Assembly: GCA_048881705.1 (NCBI GenBank)
Contig: JBHLSH010000007.1
Location: 13,198-77,197, forward strand
Length of the DNA: 64,000 nt
Direction of reading: 5' to 3'
From: Candidatus Heimdallarchaeota archaeon
Lineage (GTDB): Archaea; Asgardarchaeota; Heimdallarchaeia; Hodarchaeales; Hodarchaeaceae
The position numbers were made by a program, and so were the translations under genes. This document shows positions 15,095 to 21,340 of the stretch, in pieces. Each line of letters opens with the position of its first letter. The stretch's first letter is position 1. A model generated the notes under the pieces. It did no database searches. It was given only the letters and a program-made list of their open reading frames with translations, and had not been told where the DNA came from.

Positions 15095-15667
15095 TTGAGT
15101 CATCTAAAGACAACAATTCGCGCAATAGGAGCACCAATCAATTTGGTTTTTTGTGGTTTGGACAATGCAGGTAAAACAGCCATGTATATTAGATTGACAA
15201 CAGGAAAATTCGTCACGGATCTTAAACCAACTCTTGCCTCAACATTGGATGCAATAAACCTCGAGGAGGATGATGAATTCGTAAAGGTTACCATTATCGA
15301 TTTGGGTGGTCAAAAGGGATTACGGGATCTTTGGAGTTCGTATCTCGAAAAATGTAATGCGATCATATATGTTGTTGATGCCTATGATTCCGCTCGGTTC
15401 TTAGAATCCAAAAATGAGTTTCAAGCAAGAGTAGTTCCATTAATCAAACAAATACCCTGTATTGTCGTTTGTAATAAACTAGACCTAATTCAGGCTGATT
15501 CTAAGGTAAGAGATAATTCTGAATTGATCCGTGAGGTAGAAAACACTATTCAGAAAGCGTTAGATGTGCCAAAGGGGGATAATTTTTCAATAATAGCTGC
15601 TAGTCAGAAAACGGGATACGGATTACCGAAAGTTAAAAGGCGGCTGATAAGTCATTTCGTTAAATGA
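15095..15667 (+). CDS. Arf/Sar-like small GTPase
   Basis: G1 GLDNAGKT, G2 KPT, G3 DLGGQ, Arf-like LRDLWSSY...AIIYVVDA.D..RF.ESK, G4 NKLD. TTG start 6 nt after the upstream stop. Confidence 0.92.
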   Translation: MSHLKTTIRAIGAPINLVFCGLDNAGKTAMYIRLTTGKFVTDLKPTLASTLDAINLEEDDEFVKVTIIDLGGQKGLRDLWSSYLEKCNAIIYVVDAYDSARFLESKNEFQARVVPLIKQIPCIVVCNKLDLIQADSKVRDNSELIREVENTIQKALDVPKGDNFSIIAASQKTGYGLPKVKRRLISHFVK

Positions 15668-15995: not shown

Positions 15996-16211
15996 ATGAA
16001 TCCAAAAGAACATGAGCTGCTCAGAGCCATGGGAGACTGTTATAAGGTGTGCCAAGGCAGTTTTGAAGAAACATTGAGTATGATTTCGGGTTGGAGAGGG
16101 TATACAACTGAAGAAGTAAGGCTAATCCTACTTGCTGTTCGTGAAAAACATGGAGTTGAGCCCGAATATATCGAATTGAGAAGCCGATTTCCAGAGGATT
16201 TCCCCGTTTAA
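15996..16211 (+). CDS. 71-aa hypothetical protein
   Basis: Protein-like helical sequence with ATG start, co-oriented 33 bp before the next gene. Confidence 0.7.
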   Translation: MNPKEHELLRAMGDCYKVCQGSFEETLSMISGWRGYTTEEVRLILLAVREKHGVEPEYIELRSRFPEDFPV

Positions 16212-16244
16212 TATTTGAAGATCTCTTTGTAAGGTAAGATAGCA

Positions 16245-17144
16245 ATGATAAGATGTATGGTCTGTGATGAGCTTTTCGAGGGTGAAGAGTTTTTAAAGCT
16301 GGCTGATCACCTCTATACGTTAACGGAAGTGAGCGATCCTAGTCACATAAGTTGGCTGAATAGGAATCTTACGAGTCAAAAAGTAAAACCTAGGAATCTT
16401 GCATCACTTCTTCAAGATTATTTCGATATAGGAGAGTTGGGATTAAAAAAATGGGTAAAGTTACGGTTCATCGAGAAATTCTATGGCACTCCAGCTCATC
16501 CTTTTGTCGAAGCTCTCCAGCATCCCTCTCGTGCGACGCTCTTGGGTTATGTTGTTGAACATCAGCATTTTTTGAGGCAGTGGGTGAGATCTTGCGCCTA
16601 CATCATGGCCAAAACCGAGTTTGATGACGTGGTCCTCTATGAATTAGATAATATTAACACTGAATTTGGAGGCTACCAAGGATCGGAGGCACATTACCAG
16701 TTGTTGCTCAAGATGGGAGAGAGTTTGGGTTTTACGAAGGAAAAAATAATCAGTATGAAACCCCTTGCAGAGACAGAAAAATCGATCAAGCTCTGGAGCC
16801 ATATTGCGGCTACCTATCATTGGTTAGAGACGATGTTGGCAATGCATGGTCTGGAATTGATTGCTCACAAGGGATTACGAGGAGATGGAGCAGTCAAACA
16901 TTATTTTGATCCAGAGATTTTGGAAACCAACGAAGTAACTGAGGCAACAAAAGCGTTTCTAAGGGAGGGATATGAAGCTGATGTCCAGCACGTTGAAGAG
17001 GCCTTGGATTTGATAGAAAAGTACACTTCAACCTCAAAATCCCAGTATCTCAGAGCTGCCCAAAGTACATTCCTGAAATCAATAGAGGCATTTGATAAAT
17101 ATCTGACGAGTAGATTAAAAAGGGCCGAGCAATTTGAAGGCTAG
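16245..17144 (+). CDS. C2H2-like Zn-finger fused to CADD/PqqC/TenA (heme-oxygenase-like) helical domain
   Basis: N-terminal C4xxC7...H22...H34. HPFVEAL, DNINTE..., AHYQLL..MGESLG, GLE and EADVQH align with CADD motifs DNLMDE, NHIDLW, YE and EADVRH. Confidence 0.8.
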   Translation: MIRCMVCDELFEGEEFLKLADHLYTLTEVSDPSHISWLNRNLTSQKVKPRNLASLLQDYFDIGELGLKKWVKLRFIEKFYGTPAHPFVEALQHPSRATLLGYVVEHQHFLRQWVRSCAYIMAKTEFDDVVLYELDNINTEFGGYQGSEAHYQLLLKMGESLGFTKEKIISMKPLAETEKSIKLWSHIAATYHWLETMLAMHGLELIAHKGLRGDGAVKHYFDPEILETNEVTEATKAFLREGYEADVQHVEEALDLIEKYTSTSKSQYLRAAQSTFLKSIEAFDKYLTSRLKRAEQFEG

Positions 17145-17430
17145 AAAAGACGGATGTGCCTTATGTGGTTCAACTTGGGGGAACTTTTGGTTCGAGATAG
17201 AGGGGATTAATAGGTTTTTTTGTTGTAAGGTTTGTGCCCAATCATTTAAAAGCCTCCTGAGATCGATCAAGGAGAGTACAGGATGGCCTCATATAACCAG
17301 GCTTGAGATTTCGGGAGATGTTTATCAGAGAGCCGTGCTAGCAGGGTTTGATGAAGAGGAAGCGCTTTTCACCGTATCTTTCACTTCTTCAGGCGAAATA
17401 AGCGGCTTTTCAAAAGCCAAAAACCTTTGA
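17134..17430 (+). CDS. TA0938-family Cys-rich metal-binding protein
   Basis: GCALCGSTWG...EIEG..RFFCCKVCA matches the Thermoplasma TA0938 family pattern. It overlaps the upstream stop by 11 nt. Confidence 0.8.
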   Translation: MKARKDGCALCGSTWGNFWFEIEGINRFFCCKVCAQSFKSLLRSIKESTGWPHITRLEISGDVYQRAVLAGFDEEEALFTVSFTSSGEISGFSKAKNL

Positions 17431-17512
17431 AATCCCTCCATATGAACCTGGTTTATATCTCTGCCTGCGTAGGGGACGAGCGCCAATCATGATTTGAATC
17501 GGTGAAGGAAAA

Positions 17513-18421
17513 TTGGTAACATTTCGGTATATCGCAAACAAGTTTTTTGCATCTTGGGCAACTAGAGGTGGCATTATTACAAATTTAGTGGCTACGGCGC
17601 TATTATCTCTAATATTGATAACCTTAAATGCTTTCTTCTGGGTAGGTCGTGTTATATTGCCTGAATCTGGATATAATCTTGATAATTTCGTAAATCTCCT
17701 CGGTATTCCCATTCTGGTTGTTTTGAGTCACTTTCTTTTTCTAGTGGGGATTATATATGATGCTGGAGAATGTGAAATACTTAAAACCGATACCATGGAG
17801 ATGAGAATTAAAATCGATTTTCAAAGTATAAGGAATAGGTTAGAAAAGCCTCTTTCTAACGGAAAGTTGGTTTTAATCAGCGCTCTTTATTTCCTGGGTT
17901 TTATTCTGTTTAATTTGGGGCAGGGCATCCACTCGGCTGCAGATTTTCTTAACTCTCGAGCTATGGATCTTGATATCAAGGCTCTTATGCCTGAATATTA
18001 TCGACAAGTATGGTTCCTCGATGAAGTGGTGGGGCATTGGTTTGCGTACACAGGCTTTTGGATAATGATCTTCGTATTGGGCTTCATGAATCTTCATATT
18101 CCCTCGAAGCGCAAAATGAATAAAACTATGTGGATCACGCTGGCTTTGACCACCCTTTCATTGGGCGGTATTTTATGGGTGTTTTTTGCTGTGGAGGGAG
18201 AATATGGATTTTGGGGTTTAGGGTTGGCCATAGTTTATATTAGCTTTTTTGGATTCGAACTAAGCCGCCTCCGCAGGAATTCTTCATATTCCGCTCAACA
18301 ATTTCCCGTTGTTTGGTTTTTAATCTTATTCTTTTTGCTTTCTATTGTTGCGCTATTAAGTCTGTTTATAATCAGTGGAGGAAAATTTATTCAACCATCA
18401 GATTTATTTAAGAGAGTTTGA
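17513..18421 (+). CDS. Polytopic (~7 TM) membrane protein, CLN6-like motifs
   Basis: About 7 hydrophobic segments, with polar intramembrane motifs GQGIHSAADFLNSR, WFLDEVVGHWFAY and FAVEG. Confidence 0.75.
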   Translation: MVTFRYIANKFFASWATRGGIITNLVATALLSLILITLNAFFWVGRVILPESGYNLDNFVNLLGIPILVVLSHFLFLVGIIYDAGECEILKTDTMEMRIKIDFQSIRNRLEKPLSNGKLVLISALYFLGFILFNLGQGIHSAADFLNSRAMDLDIKALMPEYYRQVWFLDEVVGHWFAYTGFWIMIFVLGFMNLHIPSKRKMNKTMWITLALTTLSLGGILWVFFAVEGEYGFWGLGLAIVYISFFGFELSRLRRNSSYSAQQFPVVWFLILFFLLSIVALLSLFIISGGKFIQPSDLFKRV

Positions 18422-18450: not shown

Positions 18451-18939
18451 ATGACCTCGCGATCTCCCCAAATTGTTCTCTTAGGTCAAATTAGGAGCTC
18501 TTTAAACCTAATTACCCAAGTCATTGAAAAATGTCCACAACGGTATTGGTTTCACTCAAGGAACGAATGGTCGTTGTCTTGGGCCTTATACCATGTAATC
18601 GAGACATTGGATTTCTATTTGAGAGAAGATCCAAGAGGAATGGAGTGGGGAGACAGGATTGGAATAAAATGGGATTCGCAAACGCAAGATGAAATTCAGA
18701 ACGGAAAATCACAGATTACCAAGGATTTCCTAGCCGATTTTTTATTAGAAATTGAAGAAAAGGCCAGTCAAACGCTAAAATCCGTGACTGACATTGAACT
18801 ACTGTCTCAGGACGGGTTTAAATGGTTTGAAACTAGGCTTGAGAAATACATATATGCCATACGTCATACTGTGTTTCACATCGGGGAGTGTAATAAGGCC
18901 TTACGTGATAAGAATTCCCCACGCATTGAATGGCAATAA
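18451..18939 (+). CDS. DinB/YfiT family protein
   Basis: Four-helix size with His motifs ALYHVIE and AIRHTVFHIGE. Confidence 0.85.
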   Translation: MTSRSPQIVLLGQIRSSLNLITQVIEKCPQRYWFHSRNEWSLSWALYHVIETLDFYLREDPRGMEWGDRIGIKWDSQTQDEIQNGKSQITKDFLADFLLEIEEKASQTLKSVTDIELLSQDGFKWFETRLEKYIYAIRHTVFHIGECNKALRDKNSPRIEWQ

Positions 18940-18994: not shown

Positions 18995-21340
18995 CTAGAC
19001 TTGGGAGGGATCTTTTTGATGTATGCGCCAACCGTACTCGAGTTGTAAAGCATCAGATAGAATGCGTACATCTTCATCCGATAAACCCAAGTATTTTTTA
19101 AGTATTAGATCATCAATGACAGTTCTTATCCTGCTAGATGAGCCTACCGCGTCAATCGATGGAATTTCAACATTTCTAAAGCGCTGAACAGCAGAGACCA
19201 AATCCATGAAAATCGAGGACTGCAGGATAGGACGCGGATCCAGCACCAACATGTTACGCCATTCCCCCAAGGATATCTTTAGGGCTCCAAGGCCCAACGT
19301 TTTGGTGCCCAAAGTCTCTCTTAATAACATACCAAGAGTTGAATTAAGGAAAGCCAGTAAAATCAAGTTCCAATCTTGTTTTGAAGACCAAAAACCTATC
19401 CATTGCTTGTCTATGTGATATTTTCGATCGTTAAATCCTACGAAAGATCGCCTGTAAATCATATTTGGAAGAACTAGATCAGGTTGAAGTAGAGGAACAC
19501 GATACCAAGTAGAATGGGACTTATTACGAAAATATGGACGCAAAAGAACCTTTTCCTTAATTTCCGCAAGATATTGTGTTATAGGATGCCCAGGTGGAAC
19601 CTTTTCAAGGTCGAAGGATTCTACGGGCAAATAAAGCAGGTATTTGAGTTTTTTGGGAAGCGGTCCAAAGATATCATTCCATTCTCGCGGGGATTTGGTC
19701 ATGATCTTGAGAAACTTCTCAGGAATATCAAGATCCTTTACGTTTTTCCTAGAAAGATAAAAAAATTTGTTAACACCAGTTGTACTGCCCATTTTGACCT
19801 CACCAAGCTCCTCGAGTACACAAAATCTATCTTGATTCCTAAGTAATACCTTAATCAAGAGTATAGGATTCATTTCAAGATAATCTAACCGAGAAATAGG
19901 AAAAGCCTTCCGGCGGATTATTCTGCCCGCATCCGAGATATACGTCGATCTAAACGCGGATGTTTCGTGTCCTAGAATCGTTAAACTGCCATCTTCCCAC
20001 GTGAACTCGCCTGCTACCTGTTTTGTTAGGAAGAGAGAACTATCCAGGATGGGAATGTCAATAAACGTATCTTCAGCGTTTTTTTTCAAGATAATGGTTT
20101 GTAAAGGACGATCCTGAATGTTTGATTCGAGTTTTCTACCAATTACGATGTGAGTTTTGACCTGGGCGTGTTGCCATGATTCATAAGGCGTTTCGAGTAT
20201 CATAGACAATTGAAAGTCATCTAAAAATCTGCTTATCAGAGGCTGGGAAAATTGTGAGGAGAGCCATGATCGTGAAACGACCAAACCAAGTGTTCCGTTG
20301 TCAACCAACGAAGAGATAATTTTCAGCCAAAAATATACATATAAATCAGCTTTCTTGTCCCAAGAACGCACCTCTTTTGATAACTTGGCGATATTCTTTG
20401 TCAAATCAATTTTTGATTTTAGTCCATGATGGCGAACATATGGAGGATTTGTAACACAAATATCAAATTGTTCTGAGATGTCCTCCCTGATGAAATTCCT
20501 TACTTGTAATCGATCTGAGAACATATTCCATGATGAAAGGGTTTCTGAGTTATATTCCTTCTTAATAATTTCCAAATAGATCTTAAGCAGAGCAATCCTA
20601 GATAAAAATATACTTACTGGATCTATGTCGCATCCGTAAGTGTTCATCAAAACCCTCTTGATGAGGGAGATGCCTTCATTAGAAGATTTATCGTTTATGG
20701 GGTTTTTTTGGAGTAGTTCGATAATTAAGCTGACCATCTCGATTATAAAAAGCCCTACACCACAGCTGGGATCTAAAACCCTTATAACGCTTAATTTTTC
20801 CTTAATTCGTGTATATACATTTTTGCTTAAATTTGGGGGATATATTCCTTTAAAAACAAGATTGTAGGTCATTTTGCCGTCCAAGGGAAATCCATTAAGG
20901 TTAACCAGGTAGGTAAATAGCGTGGTACGACAGACCTTCCGTATCAAGCTGTTCGGGGTATGATAACTCCCCAATCCTTTTTTTTGTGAGGATGAACGTA
21001 TGTTTTCGTGAACACTGGCCAGATCATGATGATCTAGTTTGTTTTTTAGGCTTAATTCTTGAAAAATGATCCACCAATCTCTTGATTGACCTAAATAGGC
21101 CAGACAATTAGTGGAAATCTGCGCAGGCATCAGACTTAGCAGATGATCAATCTCTTTCGGTTTTTTATGCTGTTTTAGGACTTTTATAAGCAGATCGCGA
21201 CTTTTTAAATAGCTAGAACTTAGAGACGGGAACAAGAAGATTATCCCGATTGAGAAAAACACGAATTCTAATAAGGTTGGGATTTGAGGGAATTTTCGTT
21301 GGAGTCTAAACACGGCCTCTTTCGTTCCCTCAGTAAACAT
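18995..21340 (-). CDS. N6-adenine DNA methyltransferase (gamma class, Eco57I/TaqI-like) with C-terminal target-recognition domain
   Basis: Motif X GSYHTP, motif I VLDPSCGVGLF, YGCDIDP, motif IV NPPY, ADLYVYF, and TRD-like LEELGEVKMG..TG.NKFFYL. Confidence 0.9.
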   Translation of the reverse strand: MFTEGTKEAVFRLQRKFPQIPTLLEFVFFSIGIIFLFPSLSSSYLKSRDLLIKVLKQHKKPKEIDHLLSLMPAQISTNCLAYLGQSRDWWIIFQELSLKNKLDHHDLASVHENIRSSSQKKGLGSYHTPNSLIRKVCRTTLFTYLVNLNGFPLDGKMTYNLVFKGIYPPNLSKNVYTRIKEKLSVIRVLDPSCGVGLFIIEMVSLIIELLQKNPINDKSSNEGISLIKRVLMNTYGCDIDPVSIFLSRIALLKIYLEIIKKEYNSETLSSWNMFSDRLQVRNFIREDISEQFDICVTNPPYVRHHGLKSKIDLTKNIAKLSKEVRSWDKKADLYVYFWLKIISSLVDNGTLGLVVSRSWLSSQFSQPLISRFLDDFQLSMILETPYESWQHAQVKTHIVIGRKLESNIQDRPLQTIILKKNAEDTFIDIPILDSSLFLTKQVAGEFTWEDGSLTILGHETSAFRSTYISDAGRIIRRKAFPISRLDYLEMNPILLIKVLLRNQDRFCVLEELGEVKMGSTTGVNKFFYLSRKNVKDLDIPEKFLKIMTKSPREWNDIFGPLPKKLKYLLYLPVESFDLEKVPPGHPITQYLAEIKEKVLLRPYFRNKSHSTWYRVPLLQPDLVLPNMIYRRSFVGFNDRKYHIDKQWIGFWSSKQDWNLILLAFLNSTLGMLLRETLGTKTLGLGALKISLGEWRNMLVLDPRPILQSSIFMDLVSAVQRFRNVEIPSIDAVGSSSRIRTVIDDLILKKYLGLSDEDVRILSDALQLEYGWRIHQKDPSQV

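Follow-up and report, generated by a model that had tools for sequence, protein, structure and literature searches.

The open reading frame at positions 17513 to 18421 (forward strand) of a 64,000-nucleotide stretch of DNA from a Candidatus Heimdallarchaeota archaeon (GenBank assembly GCA_048881705.1, contig JBHLSH010000007.1, positions 13,198 to 77,197; hereafter the window) encodes a CLN6-like membrane protein of seven helices, referred to here as the window protein. Judged by sequence comparison, the window protein is a divergent prokaryotic relative of CLN6, a newly characterised enzyme. Its invariant residues H140, D144, D170, E171, H175 and E228 correspond in the alignment to residues that are essential for human CLN6 activity. 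Remote homology to CLN6 is very probable over helices 3-7. With a probability of roughly 0.6, the protein would be a histidine- and metal-dependent phosphoryl-transfer enzyme that acts on a glycerophosphodiester.

CLN6 of humans and other vertebrates is an endoplasmic reticulum (ER) membrane protein that is mutated in variant late-infantile Batten disease. Two preprints from October 2026 describe it as a Ca2+-dependent epimerase that turns R,S-glycerophosphoglycerol into its S,S form and acts upstream of CLN8 and CLN5 during the synthesis of bis(monoacylglycero)phosphate (BMP) (bioRxiv 10.64898/2026.10.07.757350, 10.64898/2026.10.07.757477). In one of the two, the D59A, D131A, D173A, E174A, H178A and E227A variants were inactive in cells, and H178A was dead in vitro. 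The same preprint places the N-terminus in the cytosol and the C-terminus in the ER lumen, with the pocket facing the lumen, and models the protein as a homodimer. It also proposes, from computations that combine quantum mechanics with molecular mechanics (QM/MM), a phospho-His178 intermediate through which phosphate is moved between the two primary hydroxyls of glycerol. The patient variant H127Y is inactive and R62H is non-rescuing (bioRxiv 10.64898/2026.10.07.757477). The D173/E174/H178 triple mutants and Y182A/Y223A are non-functional, and D173/E174/H178 are treated as a Ca2+ site (bioRxiv 10.64898/2026.10.07.757477). Prokaryotic relatives of CLN6 are mentioned in neither preprint, and none of the papers covered by the literature search describes them. 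The initial annotation of this gene, which was made from the DNA letters alone, had called the function of CLN6 unsettled, a statement that the two reports of epimerase function have made outdated.

Homology to CLN6 through intermediate relatives

CLN6 is represented in Pfam by the family PF15156, which has a curated cut-off of 27 bits. Of the 58 members of the window protein's family, eleven match PF15156, with a best E of 3.4e-10, and every other Pfam family is matched by at most one member. Two of the eleven lie above the cut-off, namely L028 (40.2 bits) and L007 (28.9 bits), and the nine others score 17.6-26.1 bits. The matches have a common register, in which the DE pair falls at profile position ~144 in all eleven, and the helix-3 His falls at position ~98 in the best match (L028). 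The offset from human numbering appears to be constant at ~29 for both motifs. Proteins close to L028 in the protein collection are already annotated with PF15156 by a precomputed label. When 400 Asgard genomes were scanned in six frames with PF15156, the six best matches all lay in this family's genes and none lay elsewhere.

The window protein and its close relatives are referred to as the Thor clade; the closest named protein comes from 'Candidatus Thorarchaeota'. An hhalign comparison of the Thor clade (A1) with the eleven PF15156-matching members (A5) gave a probability of 99.15% and an E of 3.7e-19 over residues 111-300. The two members above the cut-off, L028:1387-2298:+ (genome G140; identical to P0058, which is PF15156-labelled) and L007:1498-2235:- (genome G299), belong to the same family as the window protein, with A2 profile E values of 2.4e-34 to 2.7e-60. 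Both keep the same catalytic residues, and L028 has even the same numbering (D170, E171, H175 and E228). They differ from the window protein in belonging to other well-supported clades (L028 groups with Promethearchaeota). Their position 144 is Asn and their positions 58 and 61 are mostly D/E, where the window protein has D144, N58 and N61.

Three results count against the homology. The window protein itself had no PF15156 match at E up to 1 in a direct Pfam scan, a six-frame scan of its own genome gave none at E up to 10, and helices 1-2 are covered by no profile match. Since both the protein and its genome lack a direct match, the link to CLN6 is transitive. Identity of the window protein to any PF15156-positive member is only ~20%, and a scan against NCBIfam matched it to no family. 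The homology that the initial annotation proposed is therefore real but indirect: a comparison with the Pfam CLN6 profile fails for the window protein and succeeds for L028 and L007, to whose group the Thor clade is joined by the hhalign match.

Conservation of the catalytic residues

Three motifs of the window protein have counterparts in human CLN6, in the same order (G..H...D..N.R, DE..GH...Y and EG(Q/E)). The first, G136-x-G-x-H140-x3-D144-x2-N147-x-R149 (17918..17959, forward strand), lies at the outer end of helix 3 and is the counterpart of human G123...H127...D131..N134.R136, with identical spacing. The second, D170-E171-x2-G174-H175-x3-Y179 (18020..18049, forward strand), lies at the start of helix 4 and corresponds to D173-E174...H178...Y182. 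The third is E228-G-E (18194..18202, forward strand) at the outer end of helix 5, the counterpart of E227-G-Q. In this alignment, human H127 pairs with H140, D131 with D144, D173 with D170, E174 with E171, H178 with H175, and E227 with E228. Further pairs are N134 with N147, R136 with R149, and Y182 with Y179. The His and DE motifs are separated by a loop of 30 residues in the window protein and by one of 46 in human CLN6.

These positions are the most conserved of the family. Among 68 family sequences, G136 is kept in 67, H140 in 62, N or D at position 144 in 66, D170 in 67, E171 in 66, H175 in 67 and E228 in 65. Position 144 is N in 63 sequences and D in 3, the window protein being one with D144. 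G229 is kept in 59. Deviants at the conserved catalytic positions are few and are mainly divergent high-GC bacterial members.

A further motif, F-I-Q-P-S-D (18386..18403, forward strand), follows helix 7 near the C-terminus and is predicted to lie outside. Its Q294 is found in 51 of the 68 sequences and P295 in 54, and the motif is aligned in the hhalign match to the CLN6-positive clade. Human CLN6 has V-P-E-P-W at a similar place near its C-terminus, a likeness of position only.

The outer end of helix 2 carries Y-N-L-D57-N58-F-V-N61 (residues 54-61; 17672..17695, forward strand), a possible counterpart of the region around CLN6 D59. D57, N58 and N61 are invariant within the Thor clade. In the family as a whole, positions 58 and 61 are mostly D/E (37/68 and 46/68, respectively); both are Asn in the window protein, and no Arg is evident. 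The counterpart of D59 and R62 is uncertain because the acidic positions 58 and 61 of the family are Asn in the Thor clade, which has D57 instead.

Much of this had been read correctly from the DNA by the initial annotation. The open reading frame, the seven helices and all of the cited motifs and residue numbers are present (G136-Q-G-I-H140...D144..N147.R149, D170-E171-V-V-G-H175, E228-G-E and I293-Q294-P295). The human motifs that it cited are also right, as the constructs in bioRxiv 10.64898/2026.10.07.757477 translate to GASIHLVGDSVNH, YLVTEGQ and VPEPW, and the DE-x3-H spacing is the same as that of the published D173/E174/H178. The intramembrane His/Asp/Glu cluster to which the annotation drew attention consists of exactly the residues found to be essential by mutagenesis in human CLN6.

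Predicted topology, fold and dimerization

Hydropathy analysis finds seven hydrophobic segments in the window protein. The AlphaFold2 model, built from a 58-row alignment, has a predicted local distance difference test score (pLDDT) of 92.3 and a predicted template modelling score (pTM) of 0.89. It contains seven long helices, at residues 20-48, 56-84, 116-152, 160-195, 204-228, 232-254 and 265-287. The N-terminus and the even loops (2-3, 4-5 and 6-7) carry 16 Lys and Arg residues, versus 7 on the other side. This bias is general to the family, as the predicted inside is richer in Lys and Arg in 66 of 68 sequences (mean 9.9 vs 3.9). Because these residues are concentrated on the N-terminus and the even loops, the window protein is predicted to have its N-terminus inside and its C-terminus outside, with the conserved polar residues at the outer membrane boundary. 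That boundary is predicted to be the topological equivalent of the ER lumen, on the same side as the CLN6 pocket. The window protein and human CLN6 are thus alike in having seven helices and ~300 amino acids, in an N-in/C-out arrangement (with the outside equivalent to the lumen) and in being predicted homodimers.

Two copies of the window protein are predicted to pair, with an ipSAE of 0.66 versus 0.00 for the best control. Scores at this mark were obtained for 20 of the 30 proteins whose solved structure is a pair of one chain, and for 1 of the 23 whose solved structure is a single chain. The dimer runs share at least 93% of their contacts, and the partner has a pLDDT of at least 75. The predicted interface is made of helices 2 and 3 and the outer helix at 141-169. 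H140, D144, N147, D170, E171 and H175 are absent from the list of interface residues, and their helix neighbours are on it. The models thus predict that the window protein forms a homodimer.

Searches for a known fold returned little. Foldseek, run against the Protein Data Bank with models at pLDDT 72 and 92, gave no match with E <1. The wide search with VIA-align reached a best Z of 8.0, for helical hairpins only, and gave no match spanning the seven-helix domain. A sequence search of solved structures with both family profiles found nothing relevant and no CLN6 chain. Since neither Foldseek nor VIA-align gave a domain-wide match, no known fold can be named, and this includes the CREST-type hydrolases. 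The CREST group (PAQR / alkaline ceramidase / Per1-type) had been suggested by the initial annotation as the likely kind of enzyme. That suggestion finds no backing here: no CREST Pfam family is among the matches of the 58 members, no such chain is among the fold matches listed, and no solved seven-helix membrane hydrolase stood out in the fold searches. Absence from these lists leaves a CREST-type fold, like any other known fold, possible.

Proposed reaction and its alternatives

If the window protein works as CLN6 is reported to work, the phosphate of a glycerophosphodiester would be bound by one or two divalent cations, which the carboxylates of D170, E171 and E228, together with D144, would keep in place. 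Candidate substrates are glycerophosphoglycerol and, in archaetidyl- or phosphatidyl-glycerol, the free glycerol of the head group. H175 would accept the phosphoryl group (or, at a minimum, be part of the metal/phosphate site), and the group would then go back to that glycerol, onto its other primary hydroxyl. Such a 1,3-phosphoryl shift would invert the glycerol between the sn-3 and sn-1 configurations. This CLN6 reaction appears to be the best single guess for the window protein, with hydrolysis or transfer as a serious rival outcome. It is nevertheless doubtful that the substrate and reaction are identical, that is, that the window protein is itself a glycerophosphoglycerol epimerase. The guess of a metal-dependent lipid enzyme in the initial annotation agrees with what is reported of CLN6 itself.

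Several observations speak against assigning a CLN6-type activity to the window protein. PF03798, the family of the TLC/CLN8-type partner, is absent from its own genome at E up to 0.01 (the genome is 91% complete). Comparison of 27 Asgard loci, and of Hodarchaeales contigs, shows no conserved neighbouring gene. The counterparts of human D59 and R62 are uncertain, with Asn in the Thor clade at the two usually acidic positions (58 and 61), and human Y223 is replaced by F224. Finally, the CLN6 mechanism rests on two unreviewed preprints that are at odds on H178, which is a nucleophile by QM/MM in one and a Ca2+ ligand in the other. The setting also differs from that of human CLN6, as the host is an archaeon without an ER, a known BMP or a CLN8 (TLC) gene.

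The alternative that survives best is that the CLN6 fold and its metal/His site serve another reaction. The window protein would then be an outward-facing phosphodiesterase, phosphatase or head-group transferase that passes the (glycero)phosphoryl group to water or to another acceptor. On general enzymological grounds, water or another alcohol can resolve a phospho-His intermediate no less readily than the original glycerol can. The pocket end of helix 2, with N58 and N61 in place of D/E, is unlike that of the rest of the family, a Phe replaces human Y223, and the genome holds no CLN8-type acyltransferase to use an epimerised product. One bacterial member of the family adjoins an LPG_synthase_TM gene and lies near PlsY, which fits head-group chemistry in general. 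However, the full catalytic core of the only characterised member is kept, including the pocket Tyr four residues after the His, and hydrolase or transferase families are matched by no member. This alternative is possible, if somewhat unlikely.

It is very unlikely that the window protein is instead a non-enzymatic, cation-binding membrane protein (a channel, transporter or sensor) of shared ancestry with CLN6. Ca2+ or Mg2+ could be bound by the acidic residues clustered at the outer membrane boundary, and a conserved pathway context is lacking. Yet residues that CLN6 needs for catalysis have their match in the near-invariant pair of His and in the DE-x2-G-H motif, and no transporter family or fold was matched. 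A likeness to CLN6 that arose by convergence or by chance, between seven-helix proteins of no common descent, is scarcely credible, for although the window protein has no PF15156 match and at most ~20% identity to PF15156-positive members, eleven independent matches are in register (two above the curated cut-off), the hhalign probability is 99.15%, the best genome-wide matches fall only on this family, and six functionally mapped residues pair one-to-one.

A phosphoryl-transfer enzyme with a metal/His site is therefore the reading that we prefer. A different role, as a substitute for glycerol-1-phosphate dehydrogenase, was dropped because Fe-ADH_2 family genes are present in the genome and the active site is predicted to face outward. 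The genome also contains a GDPD phosphodiesterase gene, and its gene content gives no pointer to the substrate.

Distribution and phylogeny

The CLN6-like family occurs in 59 of 400 genomes of the Asgard phylum and is represented in 35 of 85 genera; two or three copies are frequent. Named Asgard members come from Thor-, Hod-, Heimdall- and Promethearchaeota. Within the genus of the window's host, the family profile matches only 2 of 21 other genomes, G070 and G072, so that the family is counted in 2-3 of the 22 genomes. G070 carries a Thor-type orthologue, and G072 carries a copy titled Hodarchaeota and a fragment. The gene is thus accessory within its genus. The G072 copy (L002/L005, on G072:C269) stands on a 5-kb contig titled 'Candidatus Hodarchaeota' and groups with Hodarchaeales sequences; it may reflect contamination of the bin (estimated at 9%) or lateral transfer.

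Copy number and integrity vary among Asgard genomes. Some have three members of the family, and stop codons interrupt certain of the copies. Tandem paralogue pairs and unusually long open frames (599 and 677 amino acids), which are possible fusions, were seen at G280:C243:12565-14280, G281:C140:29160-30866 and G149:C107:4877-6514.

In protein databases, the window protein is accompanied by one 302-amino-acid protein at 99% identity and by one Thorarchaeota protein at 73% identity. Searching 1.84 billion representative proteins with a profile built from five close relatives yielded 30 clusters. A word-indexed search with a 32-row profile returned only close relatives, and one started from the most CLN6-like Asgard protein stayed within that protein's clade; neither retrieved a canonical eukaryotic CLN6. 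A pattern scan of species genomes used a narrow pattern and found two loci.

Outside the Asgard archaea, family members were found in three settings. The first is a single Woesearchaeota genome. The second is a eukaryote, the amoebozoan Pelomyxa schiedti, whose uncharacterised protein KAH3742561.1 (P0033) was found by the Thor-clade profile with an E of 3.2e-4 among the 1.84 billion representatives. The gene (L033:8001-9014) is truly eukaryotic, as it contains an intron (its span exceeds its coding length) and its neighbours encode a TOG/CLASP-RING protein and pyruvate kinase. The Pelomyxa protein shares the G.G.H, DE..GH and EGQ motifs with the window protein; it has no PF15156 match at E up to 1 and forms a very long branch. 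The third setting is bacterial. An intact member (L078:6820-8887) is found in G400, a 1.4-Mb genome that encodes the bacterial ribosomal protein L20. Credible members occur in ~5 of 301 genomes sampled from the phylum of G400, and some of them are missing catalytic residues. The intact bacterial member scores 15 bits to PF15156, below the best Asgard ones, and the divergent bacterial members give no match.

A quick maximum-likelihood tree was built from Asgard, Pelomyxa and bacterial rows, with canonical eukaryotic CLN6 not among them. In this tree, the window protein falls in a clade with Hodarchaeales and Heimdall sequences (SH-aLRT 98). The most CLN6-like proteins fall in a separate clade with Promethearchaeota (SH-aLRT 99). 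The Pelomyxa and bacterial rows are long branches without a settled placement. The initial annotation had considered the protein possibly an unlisted eukaryotic signature protein. Neither that idea nor an Asgard origin is established, and the family is not exclusive to Asgard archaea and eukaryotes: relatives are present in a Woesearchaeota genome and in a few bacterial genomes, and the clade of the window protein is not the most CLN6-like one. With relatives in other archaea and in bacteria, the label of an Asgard-specific eukaryotic signature would first need a proper phylogeny.

Gene structure and neighbourhood

The coding sequence of the window protein (17513..18421, forward strand) specifies 302 amino acids from a TTG start, as read from the open reading frame and its translation, with the stop codon within the span. 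A Shine-Dalgarno-like GGTGA motif can be read at 17501..17505 on the same strand, 7 nucleotides 5' of the TTG. The motif, its spacing and the TTG start are all kept in the 73%-identical orthologue (locus L001) of a second genome of the same genus.

Upstream of the CLN6-like gene lies an Arf-family small GTPase gene (15095-15667, forward strand; Pfam Arf, E 2e-28), a typical eukaryote-like gene of Asgard archaea. The Arf gene is the only part of the neighbourhood that is kept at the DNA level in other genomes of the genus. It is followed on the forward strand (15996-17430) by a 71-amino-acid open reading frame, a gene for a 299-amino-acid TENA/THI-4/PQQC protein and a gene for a 98-amino-acid Ta0938-family metalloprotein. 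The TENA/THI-4/PQQC (haem-oxygenase-like) protein has an N-terminal C2H2 zinc finger, and its gene overlaps the Ta0938-family gene by 11 nucleotides. Downstream, 29 nucleotides 3' of the CLN6-like gene, is a gene for a 162-amino-acid DinB_2-like protein (18451-18939, forward strand; a weak match). A 781-amino-acid DNA methyltransferase of the Eco57I/N6_Mtase type is encoded beyond it on the reverse strand (18995-21340). The block of five genes (small protein, TenA/PqqC-like, Ta0938, CLN6-like and DinB-like) was considered as a functional unit and set aside; at the DNA level, it is found only in its own genome and in G070.

Two other neighbourhoods in the family were recorded. In G400, the intact family member stands in divergent orientation next to an LPG_synthase_TM (lysyl-phosphatidylglycerol synthase-like) gene, with a PlsY glycerol-3-phosphate acyltransferase gene ~5 kb away, a setting that hints at phosphatidylglycerol head-group chemistry. 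A metagenomic member of the Hod/Heimdall/Thor clade (L094:3228-6984) adjoins genes for two large proteins with prenyltransferase/squalene-hopene-cyclase-like repeats, an arrangement seen in that lineage only.

Significance

CLN6 is a human disease gene; the proposal of an enzymatic function for it preceded this analysis by only weeks, and its mechanism is still modelled. Because the catalytic core is kept, the window protein offers a simple microbial model for CLN6. A compact prokaryotic homologue could serve for expression, for structure determination and for tests of mechanism, such as one that decides between nucleophile and metal ligand as the role of the conserved His.

It is quite unlikely, but conceivable, that eukaryotic CLN6 descends from this Asgard family and that the archaeal enzyme works at the outer membrane face, interconverting glycerol phosphodiesters of sn-3 and sn-1 linkage. 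If true, the family would form an enzymatic bridge between the bacterial/eukaryotic (glycerol-3-phosphate-type) and the archaeal (glycerol-1-phosphate-type) stereochemistry of glycerol. It would also explain why BMP, the one eukaryotic lipid of 'archaeal' sn-1 configuration, is made by CLN6. More broadly, a family that is widespread in Asgard archaea and related to an enzyme that inverts the handedness of glycerol phosphate bears on the relation between the archaeal (sn-1) and the bacterial and eukaryotic (sn-3) lipid worlds.

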